Source: Verrucomicrobia subdivision 3 bacterium UBA3939
Lineage (GTDB): Bacteria > Verrucomicrobiota > Verrucomicrobiia > Limisphaerales > UBA3939
DNA length: 26,769 nucleotides
Assembly (NCBI GenBank): GCA_002385705.1
Contig: DGDZ01000054.1
Location: 386-27,154, forward strand
Direction of reading: 5' to 3'
Shown piece after piece: positions 6,868 to 22,637 of the stretch. Numbering within the stretch: position 1 is the first letter of the stretch; every line of letters starts with the position of its first letter. A program made the position numbers and the translations under genes. The notes under the pieces are model-generated. The model had not been told where the DNA came from. It saw only the letters and a program-made list of their open reading frames with translations, and did no database searches.

Positions 6868-9328
6868 CCGCCTGGAGGCTGGTCTTCAACGCTTCCACCA
6901 GTTTGTCGTGCGCCGCGTTCACCTCCGCATCGGTCAAGGTGCGTTCGGCACTGCGATACGTGAACGCATAGGCCATGCTCTTCTGGCCGGCAGGAATGTT
7001 CTTTCCGCGGAACACGTCGAACAGTTCCACCGATTCGAGATTGGCCGGTTTGGCTTTGCGCACGGTCTGCAGCACGGCTTCGTGCGTGACCGCTTCGGGC
7101 ACGACCATTGCCACGTCGCGCCGGCTCGATGGAAACGCAGGCAGCGGCTTGAAGGACTTCGCCGGGTTCCGCCGCGCGATCAACTGGTCGAAGCTCAGTT
7201 CCGCAAGAAAGACCGGGTCGCGCAGGTCATACTGACGGGCGAGGGCGGGATGCAGTTGGCCCATTTCGCCCAGGGGCAGTTTGCCGATCTGCACGTCGGC
7301 CGATTCGACGAACAGTCCTGCGGCTTCCGGGCGTCGGGTGTAGACCAGACCGCGCACGCCGAAGTGTTCAAAGAACTCCTCAAGGAATCCCTTGAGATCG
7401 TGCAGGTCGAACTTCGCGCCGCGCCCACTGCCGCTCCAGAAGAGCGGATCGCGCTGTCCGGTCAGGGCGATCGCGACGCGGCGTTCCTCCCGGATCTGTT
7501 CGCCCTGCCTGGAGAACACGCGTCCGATCTCGAACAGGCCGACGTCGTAGTTCTTCCGGTTCACGTTGTGCCGCAGTGCGTGGATCAGGCCCACCAATAG
7601 CGTGGGGCGCAACACGTCCATGTCTGCGCTGAGCGGATTGGCCAGGTCCACCAGGTGAACGCCGGATCTCGAGTTTTGAACCTCGGATCTGGAGATCAGC
7701 GTCTGGCCCTGGGCTTCGTTCAGGCCGAGGCCGGTCAACAGGCGCCGCGCTTCGGCAATTTGATCGTGCACGGCATCGAACTCGTTCGAACCAATGGCGC
7801 CGCGCGGCGGCGTGGCGGGGATCTTGTCAACGCCATGGAGCCGCGCGACCTCCTCGATGAGATCGACCTCGCGTTTCAGATCCACGCGGAAGCTCGGGAT
7901 GCGGAAGGTGGCGGGTTCGACCGGTGCGTCCGCGCCAACGGGTTTGGGCTTGCGATGGGTAATCTTCAATCCGAGCTGGCCGAGGTAATACTCGACTTCC
8001 TCGGGTTTGAGCTCGATCCCGAGCAGTTCGTTGACCTTGTGATGCCGCAAGGTGATCTCGCGCGGAGCGGCGGGTTTGGGATACGCATCGACGACACCGG
8101 CGGCGAGCGTTCCGCCGGCGGTCTCGAGAATCAGTTGCGCGGCGCGTTGGCTGGCCCAGTCGCAGATGCCCACGTCGGCCCCGCGCTCGAAGCGGTAGCT
8201 GGATTCGCTGCGCAGGCCGAGCGCCTTGCTGGTGCGGCGGATATTGCCGGGATGGAAGTTGGCGCTTTCGATCAACACATCGACCGTGCGTTCGTTGATC
8301 TCGGTGTTCTGGCCGCCCATGATTCCGGCGAGTGCGATGCCTTTCTGTTCGTCGGCGATCAGCAGCATATCCGCGTTGAGCACGCGCTGCTGGCCGTCGA
8401 GCGTTGTGAACTTCTCCCGGTCGGTCGCGCGGCGCACCACAATGGCGGGCTTCCCGTCCGCGCCCGGGGCGATAAGGTGATAGTCGAACGCGTGCAACGG
8501 CTGGCCGACTTCCATCATGACGTAGTTCGTCACGTCCACCACGTTGTTGATGCTGCGGATGCCGACCTTCTCGAGGGTGGTGCGGAGCCAGTCGGGGCTG
8601 GGGCCGATCTTCACGCCCTGAACCACGCGCGCCGTGTACCGCGGACACAATTCAGGGTCGGCAATACGCACGGTGACAAGACTCGACACCGGGGTCGCGC
8701 TTTCCTGGATTTTGATCTCGGGCAGGCGGAGAGGATTGCCCGTGAGGGCGGCGATTTCGCGAGCGATGCCGATGACGCTGTTCCAATCGGGCCGGTTCGG
8801 CGTGGTTTCCAGGTCGAACATCTCGTCGCTGCCGCCGCGCCCGAGGTACTCCGAGAACGGCTGGCCGACTTTGGCGTCCTCGCGCAGGATCAGCAGGCCT
8901 TCCTCGCGCTTGAGGCCGATGCTCTCCGGATCGATGCCGAGTTCATCCGCCGAGCACATCATTCCGTGCGATTCGACGCCGCGGATTTTGCCGACCTTGA
9001 TGGTAAATGGTTCCTTTTCGCCCGGTTTTAACGGCAGCGAGGCGCCCGGGAGGATCAGCGGAACCTTGTCGCCGGGCTTGAAATTGTTGGCGCCGCACAC
9101 GATCTGCCGCTCGCCCTGGCCGTCGTTGACGCGGCAGACGGAGAGTTTGTCGGCGTTCGGATGTTTGTCGCGGGTGAGGACCTGGGCGACGACGATGCCT
9201 TCGAACTCGCCGCCGATTCTGTGAATGCCTTCGACTTCCAAGCCGAGCATGGTGAGTCGATCGGCCAGTTCATCCGCCGACCAATCGAAATCCACGTACT
9301 GCCTGAGCCAATTCAGAGTGACTTTCAT
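6851..9328 (-). CDS. pheT: Phenylalanine--tRNA ligase beta subunit. The ORF is open to 9367 with a non-ATG first codon. The conserved N-terminus MKVTLNWLRQYVDFD starts 13 codons in.
   Basis: The canonical PheT N-terminus (MK..LNWLR.YV) is present. The tRNA-binding, B3/B4, B5 and C-terminal FDX-ACB-like regions are recognisable (e.g. HAFDY, MGGQNTEI). Length is 825 aa. Confidence 0.95.
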   Translation of the reverse strand: MKVTLNWLRQYVDFDWSADELADRLTMLGLEVEGIHRIGGEFEGIVVAQVLTRDKHPNADKLSVCRVNDGQGERQIVCGANNFKPGDKVPLILPGASLPLKPGEKEPFTIKVGKIRGVESHGMMCSADELGIDPESIGLKREEGLLILREDAKVGQPFSEYLGRGGSDEMFDLETTPNRPDWNSVIGIAREIAALTGNPLRLPEIKIQESATPVSSLVTVRIADPELCPRYTARVVQGVKIGPSPDWLRTTLEKVGIRSINNVVDVTNYVMMEVGQPLHAFDYHLIAPGADGKPAIVVRRATDREKFTTLDGQQRVLNADMLLIADEQKGIALAGIMGGQNTEINERTVDVLIESANFHPGNIRRTSKALGLRSESSYRFERGADVGICDWASQRAAQLILETAGGTLAAGVVDAYPKPAAPREITLRHHKVNELLGIELKPEEVEYYLGQLGLKITHRKPKPVGADAPVEPATFRIPSFRVDLKREVDLIEEVARLHGVDKIPATPPRGAIGSNEFDAVHDQIAEARRLLTGLGLNEAQGQTLISRSEVQNSRSGVHLVDLANPLSADMDVLRPTLLVGLIHALRHNVNRKNYDVGLFEIGRVFSRQGEQIREERRVAIALTGQRDPLFWSGSGRGAKFDLHDLKGFLEEFFEHFGVRGLVYTRRPEAAGLFVESADVQIGKLPLGEMGQLHPALARQYDLRDPVFLAELSFDQLIARRNPAKSFKPLPAFPSSRRDVAMVVPEAVTHEAVLQTVRKAKPANLESVELFDVFRGKNIPAGQKSMAYAFTYRSAERTLTDAEVNAAHDKLVEALKTSLQAVIREQ

Positions 9329-9386
9329 TGGGGCGGCAACGGTAATTGGCGGGGAGGAGGCAGTCAACAGAGGGGGTTAAGGAAAA

Positions 9387-9436
9387 CACCCAACATCCAA
9401 ACACCCAACCTCCAACACCGAACATTCAACATCCAA
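9387..9436. repeat. Tandem heptanucleotide array, 7 units of CAYCCAA on the plus strand (TTGGRTG on the pheT-sense strand): cacccaa catccaa acacccaa cctccaa caccgaa cattcaa catccaa.
   Basis: Read directly. It is located 59-108 nt upstream of the pheT start, inside the pheT / SPFH divergent region. Confidence 0.6.
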
Positions 9437-9579: not shown

Positions 9580-9606
9580 TTGACGTTAATATCGAAGTGA
9601 TATCAC
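9580..9606 (+). promoter_or_regulatory. Candidate sigma70-type promoter for the SPFH operon: TTGACG followed by an extended -10 (tgaTATCAC).
   Basis: ttgacg at 9580-9585; gTGaTATCAC at 9597-9606. The AAAGGA Shine-Dalgarno is 9 nt before ATG 9634. Confidence 0.3.
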
Positions 9607-9633
9607 ATCGATACCAAGAAAGGACCTGTGAAT

Positions 9634-10644
9634 ATGAACTCGAATCCTGTGAAGTCGGTCAGTCGCGAGCGAACGGTCAACGCGGTCAATGGCTGGGCCA
9701 TGTTGTTCTTCAATGTCCTGCTCCTGCTGGGCGGAATAGCCGGGATCGTCGCAACGGTGACGAAGGTCGCGCGCACCAATGATCCGGCGTATCTCTGGTG
9801 GCTTGTTCCGTTCATATTCCTCGAGTTGCTTGCTTTCATCCTGATGTTCGGTCACTTCACGCTGCAGCCGAACGAGGCGCGGGTGTTGATCCTCTTCGGC
9901 GCCTACAAGGGAACCGTGCGCGAGAGCGGGTTCTGGTGGGCGAACCCGTTCTATTCCCGGGTCCGGACGAAAGTGCCGGTGCGTCCGACGACGGTGAACG
10001 TGCAGAGGGGGACTCACGGGCGCGATGTGGCGAGCGTCGTGCACCTGACGCGGGGAACGAAGATTTCGTTGCGCGCGCAGAATTTCAACAGCGACAAGCT
10101 GAAGGTGAACGACAAACGCGGGAACCCGATCGAGATCGCCGCGGTCGTGGTGTGGCGGGTGAAGGACACCGCGAGGGCGGCGTTCGACGTGGACGATTAC
10201 GAGAGTTACGTGCACATCCAGAGCGAGGCGGCGATCCGTCATATCGCGAGCCTTTACGCGTATGACCGCGGGGACGAGCATGAGCCGACGTTGCGCGAGA
10301 GCACGGACGAGGTGTCGGCGGGTTTGATGAAGGAGCTGCAGGAGCGTCTGGAGAAGGCGGGCGTGGTGGTCGAGGAAGCGCGTCTGACGCACCTGGCGTA
10401 TGCGCCGGAGATTGCGCAGGCGATGTTGCGCCGGCAGCAGGCGGAGGCGGTGATTGCGGCGCGGCAGAAGATCGTGCACGGTGCGGTGAGCATGGTGGAT
10501 ATGGCATTGCGCGAATTGGCGGACAAGGCTGTGGTGAAGCTGGACGACGAGCGGAAGGCGGCGATGGTGAGCAACCTTCTGGTGGTGTTGTGCAGCGAAT
10601 CGGAGACGACGCCGGTGATCAATACGGGCACGCTGTATGCATAG
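9634..10644 (+). CDS. SPFH / band-7 (stomatin-prohibitin-like) membrane protein. The ORF track begins at GTG 9628, but the ATG at 9634 has better Shine-Dalgarno spacing.
   Basis: N-terminal TM ([18 protein letters not shown]... [18 protein letters not shown]), then SPFH-like blocks ([36 protein letters not shown]), then an A/E/R-rich helical C-terminus. Confidence 0.8.
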
Positions 10645-10649
10645 GACTC

Positions 10650-10814
10650 ATGCCTGAAGAGCGAAAGTCATTCCTGTTGCGGATCCCGCCCGATTTGTGG
10701 AAGGAGCTCGAGAAGTGGGCGGCGGACGAGCTGCGCAGTGTGAACGGGCAGATCGAATACATCCTGCGCCAGGCGGTGGAGAAACGCCGCCGGGCGCAGG
10801 AAAAGGAGGAATGA
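10650..10814 (+). CDS. Small Arc/MetJ-type ribbon-helix-helix DNA-binding protein (54 aa). It is 6 nt downstream of the SPFH gene.
   Basis: [47 protein letters not shown] matches the Arc-like beta-strand (SFLLRIP) plus two-helix pattern of PF03869-like proteins. The ORF track's upstream start at 10590 overlaps the SPFH gene and is not needed. Confidence 0.6.
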
Positions 10815-10836
10815 CGAAGGCAAGCCTTCGACGCCC

Positions 10837-10857
10837 CACACCGAACCTCCAACCTCC
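10837..10857. repeat. Short second copy of the heptad family: caccgaa cctccaa cctcc.
   Basis: It uses the same heptad units as 9387..9436 in the same orientation, 23 nt after the RHH gene stop. Confidence 0.45.
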
Positions 10858-11024
10858 GGGGCTCATTCTCGCCATTTTTCCCGTAGGGACTGCCGGGAAC
10901 AGCCCACCGCTCCGGCTAACGCGGCAGGCTGTCGGTTGTCCTTTCGGGAAGAAGAAACGGGCAGGCGCGGGTTGAATCCGGGACGCCACGCGGGTGCGGT
11001 TTCGAAAATCGCGCGGAATTTATA

Positions 11025-11052
11025 TTGGCACCCGCTTATTGTTCATGATAAC
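11025..11052 (+). promoter_or_regulatory. Weak candidate promoter for the flotillin-like gene (TTGGCA -N17- tGATAAC).
   Basis: It sits in the 330-bp gap before 11145. A strong Shine-Dalgarno (GAGGA) is 6 nt before ATG 11145. Confidence 0.2.
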
Positions 11053-11144
11053 CACGGAGCCATTACAGACGACCGTCTGTATGGCCAAATGAACCCGCTT
11101 TGCAAAAATCATTCGGGAGGAATCCCCTAACAACTTGAGGACCT

Positions 11145-13322
11145 ATGTTCTGGCTTAAACTTCTCATCGCATTTGTTGTCGTGGTCGCGATGTTTCTGGG
11201 AGTGGCATCGCTCTTCTGCATTCGCAAGATTCAGCCCGGCCGCGCCGGTGTGAAAACCGGCTGGGGCGGGATCAAGGTGTCCTTCGACTGGATGATCCGG
11301 ATCCCGCTGGTCCAGACCTATCACATCGTCGATATCTCGGTGAAGAAGCTCGAGATCTCGCGCAAAGGCAAGGACGGGCTGGTGTGCAAGGACAACATTC
11401 GCGCGGATATCTCGGTGGCATTCTACATCCGCGTGGAAGCGACGGAGGAAAGCGTGCGGAAGGTGGCGCAGATGCTGACGCCGGAGCGCGTGTCGGATAT
11501 GGTGCAGTTGCGGGAGCTGTTCGAGGCGAAGTTTTCCGAGGCGCTCAAGACGGCGGGCAAGCAGATGGAATTTCACGAGCTGTTCACGGAGCGGATCAAG
11601 TTCCGCGATCAGATCCAGGCGACGATCGGCAAGGACCTGGACGGGTTCCTGTTGCAGGACGTGGCGATCGACTACCTCGAGCAGACGCCGCTGGATCAGC
11701 ATGATCCGGACAACGTGCTCGACGCGGAGGGCATCAAGAAGATCACGCAGATCACGCAGCGCGAGCGGGTGGTTGCGAACGAGCACGCCCAGCGCGCCAG
11801 CGTGCAGATCGAGAAGGAGAACGCGGACGCGGACATTGCGCGGCGCGAGCAGAAGCGGCGCAACGAAGAGGACAATGCGCGGCAGACGCGTGCGATCACC
11901 GAGGTGCGGGCCAACGAGGAGGCCGAAGCGCGCAAAGTGATCGAAGCCCGCCGGCTCGAGGTTGAGGCCAAGCGGCTGGAAGTGGACGAGGCGATCCGGT
12001 TGCGGACGGAGGACATGAACCGCGCCGTGCAGGAGCGCGAATACACGGTGAAGAAGGAGCGCCAGCGGCTCGAACAGGAAGCGCTGCAGGAGGGCGAGGA
12101 AGCGCGCGTCCGGCGCGAGCGCACGGTCGCCCTGGCCGAGCTGGACAAGGACGCGAAGGTCGCGGAAGCCGGTGTCGAGGTCGAGCGCAAGCGCGCGATC
12201 GTCGTCGCCGAGCAGAAGGCCGTCGTCCAGCAGGAGGAGGAGAAGCTGAATATCGAAGCGCGCATGACCGCCGAGCGCGTGCGCGAAGTGACGCTCATCG
12301 AGGCGGACATGAACGCCAAGAAGGAGCAGGTGGAGAAGGTGGTGGCGGCCGAGGCGCAGAAGGAGGCCGAGCAGCACATGGCGGAAGCCGAGAAGATCAA
12401 GGTGATCACCGCGGCGGAGGCGGCGCGCGAAGCGGCGTTGCGCGAAGCCGAGCGCATCCAGACCATCGCGGAGGCCGAAGCGAAGGCGTCCGAGCGCAAG
12501 CGTCATGCGATGGAGCAGGAAGCCGAGGGTGTCGCGGCGCAGGAAGCCGCCAAAGGCATTGCCGAGGCGAAGGTCATCACGGCCAAGGCCGGCGCGAAGA
12601 AGGTCGATGCGGCGGCGATCCGCGAGTTGGGCCTGGCCGAGGCGGATGTGATCAAGGCCAAGGGCGACGTGACGGCGGAAGTGACGCAGATGCAGGCCGA
12701 GGCGGAAGCGGAAGGCACGAAGGACAAGGAGCTGGCGACTGCGGCCGGCATCCAGGCCAGGGGCCTTGCCGAAGCGAAAGCCATCGAAGAGAAGGCGAAA
12801 GCGATGAAGCTGCTGCACGAGGCGGGGCAGGCGCACGAGGAATTCCGCCTGCGCCTGGCGAAGGAGCGCGACGTCGAGCTCGCCGCCATCAACGTGGAAC
12901 GTTACATCGCGGAAGCGCACTCGAACATCGTGGGCGAAGCGCTCAAGAACGCGAAGATCGACATCGTGGGAGGCGAGAACGACTTCTTCGAGAAGGTGGT
13001 GCGGGCCGTGGGCAGGGGCAAGGCCGTGGACCGGCTGGTCCAGAGCAGCGCCACGCTGACCGACCTCAAGACCAGTCTGTTCAACGGCGACGCGGAACAC
13101 TTCCGGGCGAAGCTGCGGCAGTGGGTGAAGGACTTCGGGGTCACGAGCGAGGACCTGAAGAACCTCACTGTGGCGGCGTTGCTGGCGAAACTGATCGCAT
13201 CGACGAAGGACAGCGGGCTGCAGTCGGTTCTCCGGTCGGCTCAGGCGATGGCAAAAGAGAGCGGGCTGGGCGACGTGCTGGCTTCGTCCGTGATTTCGGA
13301 ACCCGAGCTTGCCAAGCTGTAG
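11145..13322 (+). CDS. Flotillin-like protein (SPFH domain plus a long E/A/K/R-rich coiled coil, YqiK/FloT-like), 725 aa.
   Basis: N-terminal TM LKLLIAFVVVVAMFLGVASLF, then an SPFH core (TYHIVDISVKKLEI...ADISVAFYIRV), then ~350 aa of EA-repeat coiled coil and a globular C-terminal tail. This is the typical flotillin architecture. Confidence 0.85.
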   Translation: MFWLKLLIAFVVVVAMFLGVASLFCIRKIQPGRAGVKTGWGGIKVSFDWMIRIPLVQTYHIVDISVKKLEISRKGKDGLVCKDNIRADISVAFYIRVEATEESVRKVAQMLTPERVSDMVQLRELFEAKFSEALKTAGKQMEFHELFTERIKFRDQIQATIGKDLDGFLLQDVAIDYLEQTPLDQHDPDNVLDAEGIKKITQITQRERVVANEHAQRASVQIEKENADADIARREQKRRNEEDNARQTRAITEVRANEEAEARKVIEARRLEVEAKRLEVDEAIRLRTEDMNRAVQEREYTVKKERQRLEQEALQEGEEARVRRERTVALAELDKDAKVAEAGVEVERKRAIVVAEQKAVVQQEEEKLNIEARMTAERVREVTLIEADMNAKKEQVEKVVAAEAQKEAEQHMAEAEKIKVITAAEAAREAALREAERIQTIAEAEAKASERKRHAMEQEAEGVAAQEAAKGIAEAKVITAKAGAKKVDAAAIRELGLAEADVIKAKGDVTAEVTQMQAEAEAEGTKDKELATAAGIQARGLAEAKAIEEKAKAMKLLHEAGQAHEEFRLRLAKERDVELAAINVERYIAEAHSNIVGEALKNAKIDIVGGENDFFEKVVRAVGRGKAVDRLVQSSATLTDLKTSLFNGDAEHFRAKLRQWVKDFGVTSEDLKNLTVAALLAKLIASTKDSGLQSVLRSAQAMAKESGLGDVLASSVISEPELAKL

Positions 13323-13376: not shown

Positions 13377-16300
13377 ATGGCCAGGAAAAAGTCAGATCCA
13401 CCCGCGCCGGTAGAGGCCACCGCTGCCGGCGCGCCGTCGGAGGCTTCACCCGCGTCCGATTCGGCGGCGCAGGCGCTGGGCAGCGCCACGTACGAGATCA
13501 TCCGGCAGCGCCTGCACGGGCTGGGCTCGACGTTGCGCGAGCGGATGTCGCAGTTGAACCGCCGGCGGCAGGAGGTGTTCGGCTCGGTCGAGTTCAAGCT
13601 GTTGCAGGCCGATCGCGTGGTGACGGCGCACAACTGCATTCCGCGCGACATGGTGCAGTTGGGCGATCAGCAGTTCCTGTTCGGGTTCAACGTGCAGTTC
13701 GGGTTGAAGAAAGAGATCGGCCTTGCGGACGTGTTTGCGATCTACACGCGCGACGAGGCGTCCGGGACATTCAAGGAGGCGGGGCTTGAACCGTTGCAGG
13801 ATCCGAACTTCGTCACGGATTTCAAACGGCTCTACAACGTTTACGAGAAGGCGTTCTTCGCCAAGTTCTCCGTCATCGAGGGCAAGCTCTACATGGTGTT
13901 CCGCGTGGGCACGAGCGTGACGGACATCGCCGTGTTCAAGTGGGCGTTCGATGACGGCCGGCTGCACTATGTGGACGGGCGGGCGGAGACCGAGTACCGC
14001 CGTGTCGGCTTTCCGCCGCAATACGAGTTCGCGTGGCGCACGCCGGACCGCGAGTCGTTCCGCTACGGCGACCACCCGCATGTTTCGATCGAGGATCGCG
14101 TTTTCGTCGAATGCGTCGGTGGCGACATCACGATCAAGGTCGAGGACAACACGAAGACGGGGGAGGGCATTTATTCGGAGCCGGTGGAGGACAAGTATCA
14201 GAAGGTGGACGACGCGGAGATCGCGTATGCGATCATCGGGCACGTGATTCTGTTGAAGATGCGGCCGTACAAGGAGAACCGGCCGCGGTACTTCATTTAC
14301 AATGAGAAGACCCAGACGGCGCACCGGGTGGATTCCATCGGGCAATCGTGCGCGCTGTTGCCGGAGGACCACGGGTTGATCTTCCCGGACGGGTATTACC
14401 TGGGGACGGGGGAATTGAAGCTGTTCGAGAGCAAGGAACAGGGAATGGCGATCGAGCGGGTCGTGCATTCTCCGAACGGCGAGGACGCGCTGTATGTCTT
14501 CTACAACCGCGAGAGCGGCGAGTACGTGCTGATGCCGTACCGATTGATTCCGCAGAAGGTGGAGGAACGCATCACCTGCCATGGCTTCTCGCTGTTCCCG
14601 TCCGGACACCTGCTGCTGTTCCGGGCGGAGGCGGAGCCGCAGAAGCACCACATGATTCAGTTGCGGCAGACGCCGTTCTATCAGCCCGGTTATGAACCGG
14701 CGGGACGAAAGGACGCGTTCCTGTATCAGGTCGGCAACAAGGACGTGGTGCGCTGCCTCGCGGAGTGCAACGAGGTGCTGACGCTGGTTGAAAAGGAGGA
14801 CCCGTACCCGGAGCTGTACGCGGATCTGGTGATGCGTTGCACGGCCATGCTGGACGCGTATCCGTGGCTGTCGGGCGAGGACGGGTTCAAGTTGGACGAA
14901 GCGCTGCGCGAGATCCGGAACGCGGCGGACAGGGCGGTGGACGAGTTCGACAAGGTGCGCCGCCTCAAGCGCGAGGCGGTGCAGCGCGTCAGCGACGTGC
15001 GCAAGCGGTGCGACGAACGGTTCCAGACCATCCGCCGCGCGAGCCTGAAGGCGCTGGGCGATTACGTCGTGAACCTGGCGGCGCTGCGCCAGTTGCGCGG
15101 GGAATTGATCACGCTCAAAGAGGTGCGCTACGTGGACCTCGCCCAGGTGGAGCTGATCGAGAAGGACGTGATCGCCCGGACGGCCGAGCTGTCGGACGCA
15201 ACGGTGAAGTTCCTGCTCAAACCGGAATCGCTGGACCCGTATCGGAAGCAGGCGGCCGGGTTTCTCGCGCAGGCCGGCAAAATCGCGAAGGTCGCCGAGG
15301 GCCGCGAACTCGAGAAGGCGGCTTCGGCCTCGGGCGCCGAGCTCGAGATGCTCATCGAGATCGTCAACAGCCTGAAGATCGAGGACGCGACGGAGACGAC
15401 GCGGATCATCGACGGGATCACGGCGGTGTATTCGACGTTGAACCAGGTGAAGGCGGCGTTGAAGCAGCGGATGCAGGAGCTGGCGGCGCACGAAGGGGCG
15501 GCGCAGTTCGCGGCGCAGATGAAGCTGCTGGGCCAGGCGGCGGCGAGTTATCTCGACCTGTGCGATACGCCGGCGCGTTGCGACGAGTATTTGAACCGGC
15601 TCACGGTGCAGATCGAGGAGCTCGAGGGGGTCTTTGCCGATTTCGAGGAATACACGGTGCAGTTGTCGGAGCGCCGGACCGAGCTGTACGAGGCGTTCGA
15701 GCAGCGGAAACTGGCATTGATCGAGCAGCGCAACCGGCGGGCGGGCGCGCTGATGACCGCGGCGGAGCGGATCCTGAAGGTGATCCAGAACCGTTTGAAC
15801 GGGTTCAAGACGGCCGAGGAGATCAACACCTACATGGCTTCGGACCTGATGGTCGCGAAGGTGCGGGAGATCATCGACCAGTTGATAGCGCTGGAGGACT
15901 CGGTCAAGGCGGACGATCTCGAGGGCCGGCTCAAGAGCGCGCAGCAGGAGGCGGTGCGCCAGCTGAAGGATCGCCAGGAACTGTTCGTGGACGGCGCGCC
16001 GGTGATCCAGCTGGGCAAACACAGGTTCAACGTCAACACGCAGCCGCTGGACCTCACCGTGGTGCACCGGGACGGGGTTCCCTGCGTTCACCTGACCAGC
16101 ACGAAGTTCTTCGAAGAGATCACCGATCCGGAGTACCTGTCCACGCGCGACGTCTGGGACCAGGAGGTGGTGTCCGAGAACGCGGACGTGTACCGCTCGG
16201 AATACCTTGCCTATCAGCTTTTGCGATCGCTGGAACCGGGCAATGGCGGCGCCGACACGAAGGCCAATGGCGCGGTGTCCGGCGCAAAGGCGACGCCGGC

Positions 16301-18872
16301 CGAGGTGCTGGCGCGATCGGACGAAGAGCGGCTGGCGATGGTGCAGGAGTTCGCGAGCGCGCGGTACCAGGAGGGGTACACGAAGGGCGTTCACGATCTG
16401 GACGCCGCGCGGATCTTCAGCGCCTTGCTGAACGCGCACGTGGCGCTGGAACTGGCGCGGTATCGCCCGGCGGCGCGCGCCTGCGCGTCCGTTTTCTGGT
16501 GCCGCTTCTGCCCGGAACCGGTGCGCGCCCTCTGGACGGCGAAGCTCAAGGGGTTCTCCGAGCGGAACAAGCTGTTTCCCGGTGAACGCGTCCAGCGCAA
16601 TTACATCGCCGCGCTGCAGGAACTGGTGCGCGAGTTCCTGCGGAACACGCCGCTGTATCCGGAGGAACTTGCGGACGACGCGGGCGAATATCTGTTCCAT
16701 GAACTGACCGGCGGCGAGGTGTTTGTTGTCAGCCGCGAGGCGCACCAGTTGTCGGTTGAGTTCGAGAAGCATCTTGCGGCGAAGGACGGGCGGCGCGTGT
16801 TTGAGCGGGCGCTCCAGCCGCTGGCGGAGCACCCGGACAGCGCGCTCGAACTGACGCGCGACTGGGTGCGGGGCTTTCTGCTGGGACGCCTCGGCACGTC
16901 GCAGTATCTCGAAGAAGTGACGTCGATCCTGTTCTGCGGCGACAAGGTGAAGCGGTCGGTCGTTCAGGCGGGAACCACCTGCGTCATCGAGGGGATGAGG
17001 GGCAGCCATCCGCGGATCGACGGGAACCGGTATCACTTCGATTATTTGGACTTTCACGACCGGTTGCGCCGGTTCGAGCGCGACGTCGTGCCGCGCTTTG
17101 AGCGGCATCGCGCCTTGAAACAGCAGTTGCTGGATCGGGAACGCGCGCGCCTGCGGCTGGACGAGTTCAAACCGCGCGTGCTGACGTCGTTTGTGCGGAA
17201 TCAGTTGATCGACCGGGTGTATTTGCCGCTGATCGGGGACAACCTCGCGAAACAGATCGGCGCCGCCGGCGACCAGAAACGCACCGATCTCATGGGCCTG
17301 TTGCTGGTGGTCTCGCCGCCCGGGTACGGCAAGACCACTCTGATGGAATACATCGCCAACCGCCTGGGCATCGTGTTCGTCAAGATCAACGGCCCCGCCC
17401 TTGGCCCGAACGTGACGTCGCTGGATCCCGAGGAAGCGCCGAACGCCGCCGCGCGCGAGGAGATCCAGAAGCTGAACCTCGCGCTGGAGATGGGCGACAA
17501 CACAATGATCTGCGTGGACGACATCCAGCATTGCAACCCGGAGTTTCTGCAGAAGTTCATCTCGTTGTGCGACGCGCAGCGGAAGATCGAAGGTGTCTGG
17601 CGCGGGCAACCGCGCACCTACGACCTGCGCGGGCGCAAGGTCGTGGTCGTGATGGCGGGCAATCCCTACACCGAGAGCGGCCAGAAATTCCGGATCCCGG
17701 ACATGCTCGCGAATCGCGCCGACACGTACAACCTGGGCGACATCATCGGCGGCCACGCCGACGCGTTCAAATCGAGCTACATCGAGAACGCGATCACCTC
17801 CAACCCCGTGCTGGCCTCGCTGGCGAACAAGAGCCAGAAGGACATCCGCGCGTTCATCCGCATGGCCGAGTCCGGCGACCGCGCCGCCGACGGCTTCGAG
17901 GGCAGTTACTCGTCGCAGGAGGTTGAGGAGATCCTGTCAGTGATGAAGAAGCTGGTGGCGATCCGCGAGATGGTGCTGCGCGTGAACCAGGAATACATCC
18001 ATTCGGCCGCCCAGGCGGATGAATTCCGCACCGAGCCGCCTTTCCGCCTGCAGGGTTCGTATCGCAACATGAATCGCCTGGCCGAAAAGGTGGTGCCGAT
18101 CATGAACGACGGCGAGGTGCGCGCGCTCGTGGTGGAACATTACCGGAACGAAGCGCAAACGCTCACCACCGGCGCGGAGGCGAATCTGCTCAAGTTCAAG
18201 GAGATCATCGGCGAGCTCTCGCCGGAGGAGAAGGCGCGCTGGGAAGAGATCAAGAAGACCTTCAAGCGCAACCAGCTCGTGCGCGGCGGCGACCAGTCGG
18301 ATCCGGTGGGGCGCGTGGTCGGGCAGTTGTCCGCCTTCCAGTCCGGGCTGCAATCGATCCAGGAAACGCTCGAAAAGCAGTTGTCGAAAGCGCAGGCGCC
18401 GGTGGTGCTGGACCTGTCGCCCGTGGGGAAGGGGTTGGAAGCATTGCAGGCGACGGTGGAGAAGCGGCTCAGCGAGGTGGCTTCATTCAAGCCCGGGCCG
18501 GAGCCGCAGGGAGTGGCCGCGCAATTGAGCGAGGGGCTGAAGGCATTGCGCGAGGACCTTGCCCGCGCGATCACGGCGGTGCACACGGGCACAATGGCAG
18601 AGAAGCTGCAAAGCCTGTCGCACGAGCTGGAGATGATCCACAGCACGCTGGCGACGTTGAAGGATCTTGCCGAGCAGCAGCGGAATCATCTGCGCAACGC
18701 GCAGGAACTGCTGGCCACCCGCGCGCGCCAGGGAACGGTGGAAATCGATCTGACGCAGGAGATGCTGGCGAATGAGCAAATGTTCCTCGAGAAAGTTCAG
18801 CAGGTGCTGAGCGAGGTGAAGGGCGAAGTGCCGCCGCCTGAAACGCAACCGGGTGAGCAGGGCCAAACCTGA
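13377..18872 (+). CDS. Giant 1831-aa protein with three parts. The first ~1300 aa are an uncharacterised, largely beta-rich N-terminal region. A single MoxR / AAA_5-class AAA+ ATPase domain follows. The last ~370 aa are a C-terminal coiled-coil tail.
   Basis: Walker A LLVVSPPGYGKTTL (nt ~17313-17345). Walker B and MoxR-like block MICVDDIQHCNPEFLQKFISLCD. Sensor-1 block VVVVMAGNPYTESGQKFRIPDMLANRADTYNL. Amino-acid composition is normal on the plus strand, whereas the 1436-aa antisense ORF is R/L/A-biased. Confidence 0.85.
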   Translation: MARKKSDPPAPVEATAAGAPSEASPASDSAAQALGSATYEIIRQRLHGLGSTLRERMSQLNRRRQEVFGSVEFKLLQADRVVTAHNCIPRDMVQLGDQQFLFGFNVQFGLKKEIGLADVFAIYTRDEASGTFKEAGLEPLQDPNFVTDFKRLYNVYEKAFFAKFSVIEGKLYMVFRVGTSVTDIAVFKWAFDDGRLHYVDGRAETEYRRVGFPPQYEFAWRTPDRESFRYGDHPHVSIEDRVFVECVGGDITIKVEDNTKTGEGIYSEPVEDKYQKVDDAEIAYAIIGHVILLKMRPYKENRPRYFIYNEKTQTAHRVDSIGQSCALLPEDHGLIFPDGYYLGTGELKLFESKEQGMAIERVVHSPNGEDALYVFYNRESGEYVLMPYRLIPQKVEERITCHGFSLFPSGHLLLFRAEAEPQKHHMIQLRQTPFYQPGYEPAGRKDAFLYQVGNKDVVRCLAECNEVLTLVEKEDPYPELYADLVMRCTAMLDAYPWLSGEDGFKLDEALREIRNAADRAVDEFDKVRRLKREAVQRVSDVRKRCDERFQTIRRASLKALGDYVVNLAALRQLRGELITLKEVRYVDLAQVELIEKDVIARTAELSDATVKFLLKPESLDPYRKQAAGFLAQAGKIAKVAEGRELEKAASASGAELEMLIEIVNSLKIEDATETTRIIDGITAVYSTLNQVKAALKQRMQELAAHEGAAQFAAQMKLLGQAAASYLDLCDTPARCDEYLNRLTVQIEELEGVFADFEEYTVQLSERRTELYEAFEQRKLALIEQRNRRAGALMTAAERILKVIQNRLNGFKTAEEINTYMASDLMVAKVREIIDQLIALEDSVKADDLEGRLKSAQQEAVRQLKDRQELFVDGAPVIQLGKHRFNVNTQPLDLTVVHRDGVPCVHLTSTKFFEEITDPEYLSTRDVWDQEVVSENADVYRSEYLAYQLLRSLEPGNGGADTKANGAVSGAKATPAEVLARSDEERLAMVQEFASARYQEGYTKGVHDLDAARIFSALLNAHVALELARYRPAARACASVFWCRFCPEPVRALWTAKLKGFSERNKLFPGERVQRNYIAALQELVREFLRNTPLYPEELADDAGEYLFHELTGGEVFVVSREAHQLSVEFEKHLAAKDGRRVFERALQPLAEHPDSALELTRDWVRGFLLGRLGTSQYLEEVTSILFCGDKVKRSVVQAGTTCVIEGMRGSHPRIDGNRYHFDYLDFHDRLRRFERDVVPRFERHRALKQQLLDRERARLRLDEFKPRVLTSFVRNQLIDRVYLPLIGDNLAKQIGAAGDQKRTDLMGLLLVVSPPGYGKTTLMEYIANRLGIVFVKINGPALGPNVTSLDPEEAPNAAAREEIQKLNLALEMGDNTMICVDDIQHCNPEFLQKFISLCDAQRKIEGVWRGQPRTYDLRGRKVVVVMAGNPYTESGQKFRIPDMLANRADTYNLGDIIGGHADAFKSSYIENAITSNPVLASLANKSQKDIRAFIRMAESGDRAADGFEGSYSSQEVEEILSVMKKLVAIREMVLRVNQEYIHSAAQADEFRTEPPFRLQGSYRNMNRLAEKVVPIMNDGEVRALVVEHYRNEAQTLTTGAEANLLKFKEIIGELSPEEKARWEEIKKTFKRNQLVRGGDQSDPVGRVVGQLSAFQSGLQSIQETLEKQLSKAQAPVVLDLSPVGKGLEALQATVEKRLSEVASFKPGPEPQGVAAQLSEGLKALREDLARAITAVHTGTMAEKLQSLSHELEMIHSTLATLKDLAEQQRNHLRNAQELLATRARQGTVEIDLTQEMLANEQMFLEKVQQVLSEVKGEVPPPETQPGEQGQT

Positions 18873-18880
18873 AACGCAAT

Positions 18881-19714
18881 ATGAAAAGAATCATCAGACG
18901 AGTCCAGAACCTGGGCCAGAAAGCGGCCCAGCTCCAACAGGCCATTCAAAACGTGCCGCCGAAGATCGCGGAGGTGCGGCAGGCGGTGGCCATGACGACC
19001 GGGCAGTTACAGCAGTTGCGAGCCGACCTCCGGGCCGGCGCGGCGGACCTGCGCGCCGACAACGAAGGCAGCCTGGTGCAGGCGTTGAACGAAGTGAACG
19101 GCGCCACGCAGGTCTTCGAACAGGCCGGGTATGAACTGACGGGCGTGGACATGGAATTGAGTCCGAACCAGCGCCTGATCGTTCACCTGGCGCGTTTCGA
19201 AGTGGTGGATCAGAGAACGCTCCAGTCCCTGCTCAGGGCCAATCAGCATGCAAAGACCGTTCACGGCATTCTCTGGTCGTTGATCCGCGCCGAGGAAATG
19301 GCGGCGCAGGTGGACGTGACGAACATGGTTTACCGGGAACTCATTGTGCACGTCGGGCCGATTCCGTCGGTGCGGATGAGCTGGGGCTATGCCGAGGAGG
19401 AGGAGGAGGAGGCACCGGTGGCACAGCCGGCGCCCGTTCAGACGACCGTGGTGTCCGGTGCCGCGCCGGCATCGGCGTCCGCTCCGACACAGTTCGCACA
19501 AACGACGTTTTTCGAATCGCGGTCGGTGCCGCAGCCGCAGGGTTCGGCGGCGGTGGCGAGCACGGCGACTTCGGATGTTTCGGCGACAACGACCGTCGCG
19601 CCCGCGGGCCAGGCGGAGGAATCGAGAGAGATGACATCGGCCGATTGGCGGCGGGATGCGCTGGAGCGGTTGAAGAAGAACCCGCATGTCTCGAAGTATC
19701 AGCGGCGGTTCTGA
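18881..19714 (+). CDS. Hypothetical 277-aa protein with an N-terminal coiled coil (Q/A/L-rich), a poly-Glu tract (EEEEEE), an A/T/S/V/Q-rich disordered region and a basic C-terminus. Its start is 8 nt after the giant gene stop.
   Basis: The ORF is in frame. Its composition is protein-like and differs from the antisense frames. Its tight spacing suggests translational coupling to the giant gene. Confidence 0.5.
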   Translation: MKRIIRRVQNLGQKAAQLQQAIQNVPPKIAEVRQAVAMTTGQLQQLRADLRAGAADLRADNEGSLVQALNEVNGATQVFEQAGYELTGVDMELSPNQRLIVHLARFEVVDQRTLQSLLRANQHAKTVHGILWSLIRAEEMAAQVDVTNMVYRELIVHVGPIPSVRMSWGYAEEEEEEAPVAQPAPVQTTVVSGAAPASASAPTQFAQTTFFESRSVPQPQGSAAVASTATSDVSATTTVAPAGQAEESREMTSADWRRDALERLKKNPHVSKYQRRF

Positions 19715-19773: not shown

Positions 19774-20115
19774 ATGATTGAGAGGGTCGTTCTGATATTC
19801 TCCGGCGGCGCCGGTCTGTTGGTCCTGGCTCTGGGCATTGCCGCGTTTGTCCGCGCTCGAAATACTCCAGCCTCAAACGCGTGCATTAACAATCTGAGGC
19901 ATCTGAATGCCGTCAAGCAGCAGTGGGCGGTGGAGAACTCAATGAGCACGAACGCAATGCCGACATGGGAAGCCCTTCGCCCATATATGTCGAAGGCGGA
20001 ACAGGAAGGCCGGCCGGTCAGGCTTGTGTGTCCTGAGGGCGGAGTGTATCTGCCGGGCCGCACGGGCGATGCGCCCACCTGTTCGATCGGCGGACCGGAC
20101 CATACGCTGCACTGA
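19774..20115 (+). CDS. Small membrane-anchored protein (113 aa) with a pilin / pseudopilin-like N-terminus that lacks a prepilin leader. It contains a CxNNLR(H/Q)L motif reminiscent of H-X9-DG / DUF1559-type proteins.
   Basis: MIERVVLIFSGGAGLLVLALGIAAFVRARNTPASNACINNLRHLNAV resembles the FTLIELLVVIAII...CxNNLKQI pattern. The ORF is open from 19645, but that extension has no start codon and no hydrophobic logic. Confidence 0.4.
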   Translation: MIERVVLIFSGGAGLLVLALGIAAFVRARNTPASNACINNLRHLNAVKQQWAVENSMSTNAMPTWEALRPYMSKAEQEGRPVRLVCPEGGVYLPGRTGDAPTCSIGGPDHTLH

Positions 20116-20135: not shown

Positions 20136-20672
20136 ATGTCACGCCGACAGAAATGGATCTGGATCGGGCTGTTTGTGGTGATTCTCTCCGCACCGTTGTG
20201 GCTGTCCTTCCTTGGTTTTTTCGCGTGGTCGCCTGTCAACTGCTGGCATTACGACGTGGACATCCGGAGCGGAAGGGTTCGTTACACTCGCTATCTGCTC
20301 TTTGCGCAGGTGGCGCAACGCGTGGAAGAGACGGCCCTGAGCAAAGCTCTGCAGCCCGAAGATCTTGCGGGCGTGCAGCCGGACTGGCACCGCGTCGCTG
20401 CTTTTTCGCCGGGAGTCCACCACTCGCCGCACTACACATTCCATTCCGCCCTCGGGCAAATGCGCGAGTTGGAGATGATCTGGAGAACCGGTGGGTTCAC
20501 GCCGGCAGCTCGCCGCGCCAGCGCCCGGCAGGTCCTGCGGCTCTGGCAGCGACACGGGCATGATGGCTCGGCACAGGAGTATTTGCGGGCTCTTTCCGAA
20601 ATTGCGCTTCGCAGTGATGTGGCATCCAAAGGCACGGATGAGGAAGATCTGCCGGCACCCGAGCAGCCATAG
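20136..20672 (+). CDS. Hypothetical N-terminally anchored membrane protein (178 aa).
   Basis: TM segment WIWIGLFVVILSAPLWLSFLGFFAW. The gene lies 20 nt after the previous gene and is followed by an intrinsic terminator. Confidence 0.45.
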   Translation: MSRRQKWIWIGLFVVILSAPLWLSFLGFFAWSPVNCWHYDVDIRSGRVRYTRYLLFAQVAQRVEETALSKALQPEDLAGVQPDWHRVAAFSPGVHHSPHYTFHSALGQMRELEMIWRTGGFTPAARRASARQVLRLWQRHGHDGSAQEYLRALSEIALRSDVASKGTDEEDLPAPEQP

Positions 20673-21605: not shown

Positions 21606-22637
21606 TCAGAATTGCTTCAGGAAACGCAGGTCGTTCTCGTAGAACAACCGGATGTCGGTGATCCCGTAACGGATCATCGCGATGCGCTCGATGCCGAACC
21701 CGAACGCCCAGCCCGTCCAGACCTCCGGATCGTAACCCACATTCTCGAACACCTGCGGATGCACCATGCCGCACCCGGCGATCTCCAGCCACTCCTTGCC
21801 CATCTTCCGGACGAGCGAACTGGTGAAATCGATCTCGAAACTCGGTTCGGTATAACTGAAGTAGTGCGGGCGAAACCGGATTTTCACATCCGATCCCATC
21901 AGTTCCTTGAACACGAACTCGACAGTGCCTTTCAGGTCGGCCGCGGTGACCCCTTTATCGACGTACAATCCTTCGACCTGCTGGAAGGTCGGGTTGTGCG
22001 TGGCATCGGCGTTGTCGCGCCGGTAAACGCGGCCCGGCACGATGATGCGCACCGGCGGCGGCTGCTTCTTCATCACGCGGATCTGCACCGAGCTCGTGTG
22101 CGTGCGCAGCAGCAATGACTTCGGACCCCGGATTTCGGATTTCGGGTCGTTCTGAAGGTAAAAGGTGTCCTGTGTATCGCGCGCCGGGTGATCGGCCGGC
22201 GTGTTCAACGCGTCGAAACAATGATACTCGTCCTCGACCTCGGGCCCGTCGGCGACGGCGAAGCCGATTTTGCGGAAACTGCGGACGATGTCCTCGGTGA
22301 CCTGGGTGAGCGGGTGCAGTCTGCCGAGGACGCGCCGACGGCCGGGCAGGGTGAAGTCGGCCGGCTCGGACGGCATGGCGGCTTTCAATTCGAGCTCGCT
22401 GCGGCGGCGCGCGAGCACGGTTTCGAGCTCGGCTTTGGCGGCGTTGATGGCCTTTCCGGCGGCGGGTTTTTCCTCTTTGGGAAGCGAGCCGAGCTGCTTC
22501 ATGAGGGCGGTGAAGCGGCCGTGCGGGCCGATCCAATTGCCCTTGGCCTGCTCGAGCGCGGCAAGGTCAGCGGCATTCTGCAGGTCGGCCAGACCCGCGG
22601 ACTTCAACGGTTCAATCTGATCGATTAATCCAGCCAT
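21606..22637 (-). CDS. pheS: Phenylalanine--tRNA ligase alpha subunit.
   Basis: Class II aaRS motifs and the diagnostic PheS C-terminus are present (FGFGIERIAMIRYGITDIRLFYENDLRFLKQF, HPARD, GLYVDKG). Confidence 0.95.
   Translation of the reverse strand: MAGLIDQIEPLKSAGLADLQNAADLAALEQAKGNWIGPHGRFTALMKQLGSLPKEEKPAAGKAINAAKAELETVLARRRSELELKAAMPSEPADFTLPGRRRVLGRLHPLTQVTEDIVRSFRKIGFAVADGPEVEDEYHCFDALNTPADHPARDTQDTFYLQNDPKSEIRGPKSLLLRTHTSSVQIRVMKKQPPPVRIIVPGRVYRRDNADATHNPTFQQVEGLYVDKGVTAADLKGTVEFVFKELMGSDVKIRFRPHYFSYTEPSFEIDFTSSLVRKMGKEWLEIAGCGMVHPQVFENVGYDPEVWTGWAFGFGIERIAMIRYGITDIRLFYENDLRFLKQF

Follow-up and report, generated by a model that had tools for sequence, protein, structure and literature searches.

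A giant AAA+ ATPase encoded directly downstream of a flotillin gene in a Limisphaerales bacterium, and its possible action on flotillin assemblies

The window analysed here, a 26,769-nucleotide stretch of contig DGDZ01000054.1 from the Verrucomicrobia subdivision 3 bacterium UBA3939, carries a 1831-codon gene (13377..18872, +) for a giant soluble AAA+ ATPase of the DUF3686-DUF7902-AAA+ family, whose members appear at NCBI as 'DNA repair ATPase' or 'AAA family ATPase'. A sequence-only reading had proposed this reading frame, and its product is identical to the deposited protein HHY86079.1 ('AAA family ATPase'); the gene is real and its family is widespread. The gene for a 725-residue flotillin-like protein (11145..13322, +) ends 54 nt before the ATPase start, and the gene for a soluble 277-residue protein, p277 (18881..19714, +), begins 8 nt after the ATPase end. 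Both spacings agree with those given earlier, as does the lack of a GGAGG-like Shine-Dalgarno sequence in front of position 13377. Transmembrane (TM) prediction returned zero segments for the ATPase. A long antisense reading frame (13446-17756, -) was discarded as a high-GC shadow ORF, and Rfam and tRNA scans of the window were empty.

The assignment of the upstream gene as a flotillin was upheld by a Band_7 match obtained with residues 1-230 as query (5.9e-13, 49.7 bits versus a cut-off of 23.6), by a single predicted N-terminal TM segment, and by the NCBI name 'flotillin family protein' (HHY86078.1). The protein comprises a TM anchor (residues 1-30), an SPFH/Band_7 domain (residues 28-169), a long charged coiled coil that is visible in the sequence as an E/A/K-rich stretch, and a C-terminal domain; by the positive-inside rule, the bulk of it should be cytoplasmic. 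Used at full length, the flotillin had no Pfam match, probably because of composition bias, and searches against the PDB with the single sequence and with a profile gave no match. Positions 11010..11069 (+; GGAATTTaTATTGGC...TTCaTGaTAaCC) align with the pheT-flotillin gap of a close relative (L001), to which the pheT-SPFH338 gap does not align, and this conserved stretch probably serves the flotillin-ATPase-p277 unit as a promoter or regulatory region. A consensus sigma-70 scan found no site within it, and a sigma-54-like promoter was rejected since the GG-N10-GC spacing does not fit. The earlier suggestion that the ATPase is coupled to both an SPFH gene and a flotillin gene held for the flotillin but not for the separate SPFH gene (9628-10644), which is not a conserved neighbour; it and its Arc partner form an insertion that is not conserved.

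The first ~1300 residues of the ATPase, in which no motif had been placed, contain two Pfam families, both of unknown function: DUF3686 (PF12458) at residues 53-495 (13533..14861, +; E 4.3e-169, 563 bits versus a cut-off of 25, profile fully covered) and DUF7902 (PF25472) at residues 618-701 (nt 15228-15479; E 2e-24, 86 bits). Fold models of the ATPase were of high confidence and predict that the DUF3686 region contains a roughly seven-bladed beta-propeller-like domain (~residues 74-431, nt 13596-14669) along with a long N-terminal helix and C-terminal helices that pack together as a bundle. The N-terminal block quoted previously, HGFSLFPSGHLLLF, was found at residues 402-415. The helical or coiled-coil stalk (residues 520-867; 14934..15977, +), which includes DUF7902, is followed by a middle region (residues 868-1270; 15978..17186, +) predicted to consist, in order, of a beta element (868-915), an all-alpha domain in which the motif G-V-H-D-x-D-A is invariant (1004-1010), beta hairpins (1192-1222) and a long helix that runs on to the AAA+ module. 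The description of this N-terminal portion as beta-rich was thus accurate for residues ~74-431 only, plus the small beta elements near 868-915 and 1192-1222, whereas residues 445-867 and 930-1190 are helical in the fold models. Nor do the last ~370 residues form the coiled coil that had been described, since a conserved AAA+ lid and helical region extends to residue ~1625 and a variable helical tail follows (residues 1640-1831; 18294..18869, +). Alignment columns in this tail have a gap fraction of 0.55-0.74 and a conservation of about 0.1, most relatives lack it, and Pfam gives only weak coiled-coil-type matches to it.

A fold search with the N-terminal head retrieved helical bundles and propellers of generic type (the latter including Sec12, WDR5 and DCAF1) and gave no functional lead. 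Pfam searches with separate segments (stalk, middle domain and tail of the ATPase, and the coiled coil of the flotillin) returned nothing past DUF7902 and generic AAA. PDB sequence searches with the whole ATPase and with a profile of residues 868-1625 matched the P-loop alone (p97, NVL or RuvB), and the PHROGs search matched the ATPase to a clamp-loader-type AAA and nothing else. The best reading is of a soluble cytoplasmic protein in four parts, namely a propeller set in a helical bundle, a ~350-residue stalk, a helical middle domain and the AAA+ module.

The AAA+ module with its lid (residues 1271-1625; 17187..18251, +) contains a Walker A motif, SPPGYGKT (residues 1313-1320; nt 17313-17336, +), a Walker B motif ending in VDDIQH in which DD replaces DE (residues 1378-1385; nt 17508-17531, +), a predicted beta hairpin before sensor 1 (residues 1403-1416, +), the sensor-1 residue N1429 within GNPYTE (nt 17658-17675, +), a candidate Arg finger, R1447 (nt 17715-17717, +), and a candidate sensor 2, R1563 in QGSYR (nt 18063-18065, +), with roles such as sensor 1, Arg finger and sensor 2 assigned from position in the fold model. 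All of the AAA+ motifs quoted in the sequence-only reading were located (SPPGYGKTT at 1313-1321, VDDIQ at 1380-1384, NPEFLQKF at 1387-1394 and AGNPYTE at 1427-1433), along with the block RIPDMLANRADTYNL at residues 1439-1453. In an alignment of 40 diverse family members, GYGKT (1316-1320), DD (1381-1382), N1429, R1447 and R1563 were invariant, and the module appears to hold a complete set of catalytic residues. All members have DD in place of DE in Walker B, so hydrolysis may be slow or switch-like.

Pfam matches this module to AAA and AAA_5 at residues 1309-1434, although the AAA_5 similarity is marginal (26.6 bits) and a MoxR-specific NCBIfam match is absent. Its nearest structural neighbours in the fold search were CbbQ, NorQ, dynein and midasin, and the motif set, the AAA_5 match and these neighbours bear out the view of a giant protein with a single AAA+ domain of MoxR/AAA_5 type. 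The ATPase shares with MoxR-class proteins (CbbQ, NorQ, RavA) and with dynein and midasin the sensor-1/Arg-finger block ...GNP.tE..G..f.iPdml.nR... and the beta hairpin before sensor 1; if the fold model is right, it also resembles the midasin MIDAS domain and the dynein stalk in placing a target-binding module remotely, on a long arm. In contrast with the MoxR class, it has one AAA+ module per chain after about 1270 residues and a DD Walker B. Where MoxR-class pores typically have the helix-2 insert hairpin, the predicted structure shows a conserved 18-residue loop (about 1339-1356) between beta2 and alpha2.

The ATPase has the features that define its family: its stalk carries DUF7902, a single AAA+ module lies towards the C-terminus, and its length is within the range of about 1600-1930 residues. 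Relatives align with it over 87-100% of its length, and full-length representatives span 1590-1931 residues. The best 120 database matches are ~70% identical over their full length and, where named, come from Verrucomicrobia, while members from other phyla have 40-50% full-length identity to the window protein. The statement that the protein matches no characterised family was correct in that no experimentally studied family fits, but the family is already catalogued as Pfam DUF3686 plus DUF7902 and as 'DNA repair ATPase' at NCBI. Literature searches that covered YqiK and YqiJ with an ATPase, and flotillin and NfeD with AAA+ proteins, turned up no experimental study of this ATPase.

The flotillin-ATPase operon has been described in silico before. 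Using comparative genomics, Ravi et al. (2024, mSystems, PMC11237479) placed a beta-propeller, coiled-coil and AAA+ ATPase in CesT/Tir-PspA-YqiJ/YuaF-flotillin operons, allowed for abbreviated forms of the operon, and interpreted the band-7/CesT/AAA+ genes near PspA as encoding machinery that assembles membrane-linked complexes. The Dokdonia neighbourhood in their table agrees with the Bacteroidota loci found here. The window locus has the same family and the same flotillin-to-ATPase order; it differs from the full operon in being 'abbreviated', without CesT/Tir, PspA or YqiJ, and in adding the clade-specific 277-residue gene downstream and a longer ATPase C-terminal tail.

Inspection of gene neighbourhoods in relatives, in which we counted a locus when a flotillin gene lay directly upstream of the ATPase gene on the same strand, confirmed that the adjacency is conserved across phyla. 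It was present at 64 of the 67 assessable genomic loci and at all 7 loci from a separate search of a plasmid collection; an adjacent flotillin gene was absent at the other three genomic loci, so that an ATPase gene with no flotillin gene beside it is very rare among the loci sampled. The pair occurs in Verrucomicrobiota, Planctomycetota, Bacteroidota, Desulfobacterota, Clostridia, Kiritimatiellota, Fibrobacterota, Actinomycetota, Deinococcota and Gammaproteobacteria, with intergenic gaps mostly between -10 and 130 nt. Pairwise divergence of the ATPase and of the flotillin was correlated (r = 0.82 over 52 loci, species phylogeny not corrected for). At 56 of the 67 loci a YqiJ/NfeD-like gene precedes the flotillin gene. 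PspA and CesT/Tir, both Pfam-confirmed, lie upstream at 15-17 of the 67 (17 for PspA), mostly in named Bacteroidota, where a LexA-like regulator is also found upstream. These five (flotillin, YqiJ-like, PspA, CesT/Tir and the LexA-like regulator) were the only recurrent neighbour clusters; no VWA/MIDAS partner was among them, and no VWA domain was found in the ORFs of the window. One apparent Rosetta-stone fusion (P0146) was rejected, as its 470-residue N-terminal extension has no relation to flotillin and seems to stem from the merging of gene calls.

The family thus shares its two upstream genes, at 56 of 67 loci, with yqiJ-yqiK of Escherichia coli, yuaF-floT of Bacillus subtilis and SO1376-SO1377 of Shewanella, and the window flotillin has the same TM, SPFH and coiled-coil layout as the flotillins of those operons. 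The model operons, however, end after the flotillin gene and lack the ATPase: SO1376-77 stops at a terminator, and no ATPase homologue was found in E. coli. The window also differs from them in having no NfeD-like gene; no YqiJ-like ORF was detected anywhere in it at E <= 1, and neither was a PspA or CesT/Tir ORF. The YqiJ-like gene is also missing in close relatives (L001, L005-L007 and L009-L011), and p277 adjoins the ATPase only in YqiJ-less loci. p277 is confined to one verrucomicrobial clade, as judged by homologue search and alignment: its 111 homologues, where named, are solely from Verrucomicrobia. It has a conserved helical N-terminus, an alpha/beta core, a linker that is acidic and rich in Pro and Ala, and two short motifs conserved near the C-terminus (SSFFE.R and DWxxxALxRFKKxPxxSKY), with no Pfam domain and no PDB match in a profile search. 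The window carries a Limisphaerales variant, with YqiJ missing and a clade-restricted protein downstream, rather than a new kind of system.

Of the roles that had been suggested for the ATPase, membrane remodelling is the one that the conserved gene neighbourhood (flotillin, YqiJ/NfeD-like, PspA and CesT/Tir) backs best. We tentatively propose that the protein is a MoxR-like ATPase of the cytoplasm that remodels flotillin assemblies when the membrane is under stress. The ATPase would be made from the same operon as the membrane-anchored flotillin and work with it; its AAA+ modules would assemble into a ring, and the propeller-on-stalk arms would dock on the cytoplasmic flotillin (SPFH) oligomer. 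ATP hydrolysis could then pull on the scaffold, with opening, disassembly or recycling under envelope or membrane stress as the presumed direction. MoxR-class motors pull their targets via a VWA/MIDAS adaptor, and here the adaptor may be built into the same chain. In this Limisphaerales lineage the usual YqiJ/NfeD-like membrane partner is absent; p277, with its short conserved C-terminal motifs, is found instead and may itself be an adaptor.

Two known pairings of a scaffold with an AAA+ machine offer comparisons. FtsH-HflK/C is an AAA+ protease within an SPFH cage at the inner membrane. The present gene pair likewise joins an SPFH scaffold with an AAA+ machine, and its genetic coupling is equally tight; the ATPase is, however, soluble, lacks a protease domain and belongs to another AAA+ clade, and the SPFH partner is of the flotillin/YqiK type rather than HflK/C. 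Membrane-remodelling pairs of the Vps4-ESCRT-III or PspA type also combine a membrane-bound polymerising scaffold with a dedicated AAA+ recycler, and here the likeness would be one of function only, since Vps4 is a classical-clade AAA+ protein with an MIT domain that threads ESCRT-III, whereas the scaffold at this locus is SPFH and the motor MoxR-like. A bolder form of the proposal, which we consider speculative, is that the family represents the missing energy-consuming partner of bacterial flotillins. On this view a ring motor of the MoxR/midasin kind, its six arms each tipped by a propeller, would grip the cytoplasmic SPFH cage and open or disassemble it when needed, as the SPFH counterpart of Vps4 for ESCRT-III, with p277 a newly evolved soluble adaptor that replaces the NfeD-like partner in Limisphaerales.

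The conserved adjacency fits equally well with an ATPase that acts on flotillin clients and not on flotillin itself. It is possible, if doubtful, that the flotillin is only a platform at which a MoxR-like chaperone ATPase is recruited or enclosed and extracts, matures or disassembles client membrane-protein complexes, much as FtsH works inside the HflK/C SPFH cage and CbbQ and NorQ mature Rubisco and NO reductase. The nearest folds, CbbQ and NorQ, are client-remodelling chaperones, a propeller is a generic protein-binding module, and the reading of PspA neighbours as assemblers of membrane-linked complexes (PMC11237479) points the same way. Yet the neighbourhood holds no conserved candidate client gene, and the recurrent neighbour clusters include no VWA/MIDAS partner, in contrast to true MoxR systems.

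That the two genes are merely co-regulated within an envelope-stress regulon, with some other cytoplasmic target for the ATPase and no direct mechanical link, seems unlikely. Operon membership by itself does not prove contact, and in Bacteroidota the block is part of a longer stress operon that also includes genes for PspA and a LexA-like repressor. Nevertheless, the flotillin-to-ATPase order and its tight spacing are held over about 10 phyla and on plasmids as well as chromosomes, the pair stays constant while other neighbours vary, and the divergence of the two proteins is correlated.

A defence role had also been raised but gained no support. In such an anti-phage or abortive-infection system the ATPase would sense infection and the flotillin would perturb the membrane, which we consider improbable. 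Defence systems often include large NTPases with propeller or repeat sensor domains, the distribution of the family is patchy and includes megaplasmids such as pQBR103, and small nuclease genes (DUF559, PDDEXK_3) are inserted at some loci. Against this, PADLOC-DB 2.0 gave the ATPase only a weak LmuB match in the coiled coil (residues 501-899, E 1.9e-6) and found nothing for the flotillin, p277 or SPFH338, and a search of 50,697 phage records found no homologue. The surrounding genes in the window are of housekeeping type (pheT, pheS, rplT, glycoside hydrolases), the Pfam-scanned ORFs include no integrase or transposase domain, and the GC content is the same as that of the flanks; the best 120 matches look vertically inherited, and the recurrent neighbours are membrane-stress genes.

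Least probable of all is the DNA repair ATPase implied by the NCBI product name and by the Pfam description of PF12458 ('ATPase involved in DNA repair'), which weak RuvB P-loop matches and the LexA-like regulator adjoining Bacteroidota operons might favour: RuvB and p97 similarity is confined to about 40-60 residues of the P-loop, RuvB NCBIfam scores are about 20 bits versus cut-offs of 282-299, the sole SMC-like signal is the LmuB match in the coiled coil, the protein has neither an ABC-type split ATPase head nor an AAA+ of RuvB type joined to DNA-binding or partner domains, neither the ATPase nor its conserved partners (all of them membrane or membrane-stress proteins) contain a nuclease, helicase or DNA-binding domain, and literature searches found no paper on 'DUF3686' or 'DUF7902' or pairing 'DNA repair ATPase' with flotillin. 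The product name has no visible basis and is probably misleading, and the SMC-like, LmuB-like coiled coil of the stalk is its likely source.

There is as yet no agreement on what bacterial flotillins do or on how their large oligomers form, open and are recycled, and to our knowledge no SPFH scaffold other than HflK/C, with FtsH, has a dedicated ATPase. Because the family is big, well conserved, almost obligatorily linked to a flotillin gene and present in tractable hosts, the flotillin-ATPase question is directly testable; such hosts include Pseudomonas fluorescens SBW25 with pQBR103, Proteus mirabilis, Vibrio campbellii, Streptomyces and flavobacteria.

The gene for the giant ATPase (13377-18872, forward strand) is an uninterrupted open reading frame of 1831 codons in a window with a GC content of ~0.63 throughout, and its translation contains every motif quoted in the sequence-only reading. 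The 54-nt gap from the flotillin gene, the 8-nt gap to the gene encoding a 277-aa protein (p277), and the absence of a Shine-Dalgarno sequence before the ATPase gene were likewise verified. An identical protein from a Verrucomicrobiota MAG is deposited under HHY86079.1 and named "AAA family ATPase". A 1436-aa ORF on the opposite strand over this gene was rejected as a high-GC shadow ORF. The N-terminal 1300 residues had been considered unplaceable, but Pfam places DUF3686 (residues 53-495, E = 4.3e-169) and DUF7902 (residues 618-701, E = 2e-24) in this region. All defining features tested for the DUF3686-DUF7902-AAA+ family were found, and the ATPase is a member of this family.

An AlphaFold2 model of residues 30-520, using 26 diverse relatives as input (pLDDT 91, pTM 0.89), predicted a head in which a long N-terminal helix precedes ~7 four-stranded blades (residues ~74-431), with the C-terminal helices and the first helix closing the bundle. 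Residues 520-867 form a helical stalk, whose sole database signal besides DUF7902 was weak similarity to the coiled coil of the SMC-like LmuB. The propeller head is thereby carried at the end of a long arm of helices. A second model, of residues 868-1625 (pLDDT 87.7), comprised, in order, a small beta element, an all-alpha domain, two hairpins, a long helix, and a complete AAA+ module, with a beta hairpin (residues 1403-1416) ahead of sensor 1. Transmembrane prediction found no membrane-spanning segment in the ATPase. The protein is soluble, and its AAA+ module is MoxR-like and complete. This module is by far the most conserved part of the protein: Walker A (GYGKT), a Walker B of DD rather than DE, Asn1429 (GNPYTE), Arg1447 (PDMLANR), and Arg1563 (QGSYR) were invariant in 40 relatives sharing 30-50% identity. 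A GVHDxDA motif (residues 1004-1010, window 16386-16406) within the all-alpha domain is also invariant and caps a long helix, while the helical middle domain surrounding it is otherwise poorly conserved. The tail (~1640-1831) is variable and missing from most relatives.

In contrast with MoxR proteins, the ATPase family has an invariant DD in Walker B and the helix-2 hairpin is absent from the model, features that may produce slow, switch-like hydrolysis. The fold is that of a MoxR/midasin-type motor and, by analogy, the protein may work like one; we do not class it as a MoxR protein because its recurrent neighbors include no VWA partner, the model does not confirm a helix-2 insert, and its similarity to these proteins in sequence is only marginal.

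When residues 1-520 were scanned exhaustively with HMMER, they matched 706 clusters (50% identity), 253 of them at E <= 1e-30, with full-length family members spanning ~1600-1930 aa. More than 3700 homologues were found in a word-indexed search, of which the best 120 were full-length, ~70% identical, and from Verrucomicrobia where a source was named. At least 585 genomes carried a homologue in a one-genome-per-species scan, the best 80 including Verrucomicrobiota, Planctomycetota, Bacteroidota, Desulfobacterota, Clostridia, Kiritimatiellota, and Chitinispirillaceae. Searching plasmid records with tblastn added Streptomyces, Nonomuraea, Deinococcus, Pseudomonas (pQBR103), Proteus, Halomonas, Vibrio, and Photobacterium, all at 87-94% query coverage. 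No homologue was found in phage records, nor in E. coli at blastn sensitivity. One metagenomic DUF3686 protein (P0146, 1345 aa) has an N-terminal extension of ~470 aa that begins with a ClpP/long-NfeD-like "IDSPGG" stretch and then turns into low-complexity sequence that resembles junk. Two genes were probably merged in this call, and a long-form NfeD protease gene may lie just upstream in its contig.

The flotillin (725 aa, 11145-13322, forward strand), which NCBI labels a "flotillin family protein", has one N-terminal transmembrane segment and a Pfam Band_7/SPFH match to its first 230 residues (5.9e-13); searched at full length, it had no Pfam match. We called and clustered ORFs in all fetched related loci and counted upstream genes in the 67 loci with at least 2.6 kb of upstream sequence. 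A flotillin-like gene (650-790 aa) lay directly upstream of the ATPase gene on the same strand in 64 of these, being frameshifted in one (L035), and was absent from three (L020, L024, and L054). The order flotillin then ATPase also held in all seven plasmid-collection records inspected (Hymenobacter, pQBR103, Streptomyces, Deinococcus, Proteus, Vibrio, and Nonomuraea, several being chromosome-sized records filed as plasmids). The linkage, whose loss in other genomes would have counted against the sequence-only reading, is clearly retained, and the two genes are near-obligatorily co-located. Their pairwise identities correlated across 52 loci (r = 0.82, uncorrected for phylogeny), and their spacing was -10 to 130 nt in most loci. 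Wider gaps contain unrelated small genes, such as DUF559 (Vsr-like; L036:7521-7943) or PDDEXK_3 (L030:7522-7941) nucleases by Pfam, with which the genes at L038:7398-7955 and L057:7550-7924 cluster; these wedged genes look like selfish insertions rather than parts of the system.

Membrane-stress genes recur nearby. A gene for a YqiJ/DUF1449-like membrane protein precedes flotillin in 56/67 loci and is present in 6/7 plasmid-collection records, while PspA (17 loci), CesT/Tir (15), and a divergent HTH_3 + Peptidase_S24 regulator (15) occur mostly in named Bacteroidota; representative members of these three clusters were confirmed by Pfam. This regulator (L002:1577-2359, reverse strand, and its equivalents in the 15 loci), of the LexA-like self-cleaving type, adjoins the CesT/Tir-PspA-YqiJ-flotillin-ATPase operon. 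The divergent LexA-like regulator suggests that the operon is derepressed by a damage or stress signal.

Exactly this operon was derived from PspA neighborhoods by Ravi et al. 2024 (mSystems, PMC11237479), who found abbreviated operons (flotillin, YqiJ, and sometimes the ATPase) to be more widespread; the Dokdonia entry in their table matches our Bacteroidota loci gene for gene. The studied Shewanella flotillin operon (SO1376-SO1377) ends in a terminator and lacks the ATPase. Our literature search found no mention of DUF3686 or DUF7902 and no experimental study of the ATPase.

The family is a good candidate, amenable to testing, for the energy-dependent partner missing from bacterial flotillins, an idea already outlined in print. 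We tentatively favor the ATPase acting on the flotillin scaffold itself. The invariant Arg finger argues that the AAA+ modules would assemble into a ring; the propeller heads would dock onto the flotillin oligomer, which is presumably oriented toward the cytoplasm, and ATP hydrolysis would remodel or disassemble the scaffold. By analogy, the propeller arm could take in cis the role of the VWA/MIDAS adaptors of CbbQ, NorQ, and midasin. Somewhat less probably, flotillin is only a platform from which the ATPase works on clients, as FtsH does in its HflK/C cage; the data do not separate this reading from flotillin as the target. Pure co-regulation of the two genes is less likely than either and rather improbable, and a defense role is more doubtful again. 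A role in DNA repair is the least credible, and that label for the family is unfounded.

The system in the window is an abbreviated form of the operon described computationally and also includes an accessory gene specific to its clade. What the locus newly contributes is only this p277-for-YqiJ variant and the evidence against the "DNA repair" label. YqiJ, PspA, and CesT/Tir were found neither in the window nor in its close relatives; here p277 (18881-19714, forward strand) lies 3' of the ATPase gene. Its family has 111 members, the named ones all from Verrucomicrobia, and it had no match in Pfam or the PDB. Alignment revealed an adaptor-like layout: the N-terminal half is folded, a disordered linker rich in acidic residues and Pro/Ala follows, and the C-terminal part contains two short motifs that are conserved (SSFFE.R and DWxxxALxRFKKxPxxSKY). 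p277 was present only in loci without a YqiJ-like gene, a pattern that amounts to a single evolutionary event because these loci form one clade. Its gene in L010 and L011 is also downstream of the ATPase gene, on the other strand.

A separate SPFH protein (338 aa, 9628-10644, forward strand; two transmembrane segments plus Band_7; PHROG 200) and its 54-aa Arc/RHH partner (10650-10814, forward strand) are not conserved with the flotillin-ATPase-p277 trio, and the pair was found in no other related locus. The 73% identical relative L001 runs directly from pheT to flotillin, and the sequence between these two genes aligns with the gap between the Arc and flotillin genes of the window, indicating that the pair is an inserted cassette and that the flotillin operon has a separate conserved upstream region (~11010-11069). 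Copies of a CCAAC-rich 23-nt motif flank the cassette (9383-9434 and 10835-10857), and a 24-nt palindrome immediately upstream (9590-9613) could be an operator.

The flanks hold housekeeping and carbohydrate genes (pectate lyase, GH43, GH28, pheT, methyltransferase, pheS, rplT, aminotransferase, and chorismate-binding enzyme), and no integrase or transposase domain was found among the window ORFs scanned. pheT and pheS are usually adjacent; here they lie ~12 kb apart (6851-9367 and 21606-22637, both reverse strand), separated by the SPFH, Arc, flotillin, ATPase, p277, two small membrane-protein, and methyltransferase genes on the opposite strand, a placement shared with L001 and not with other Limisphaerales loci. 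The two small proteins after p277 (113 aa, 19774-20115; 178 aa, 20136-20672; both forward strand) matched no family, and each has one N-terminal transmembrane segment. The 113-aa protein, annotated by NCBI only as a 57-aa version, has a prepilin-like N-terminus (...ACINNLRHLNAVKQQWAVEN).
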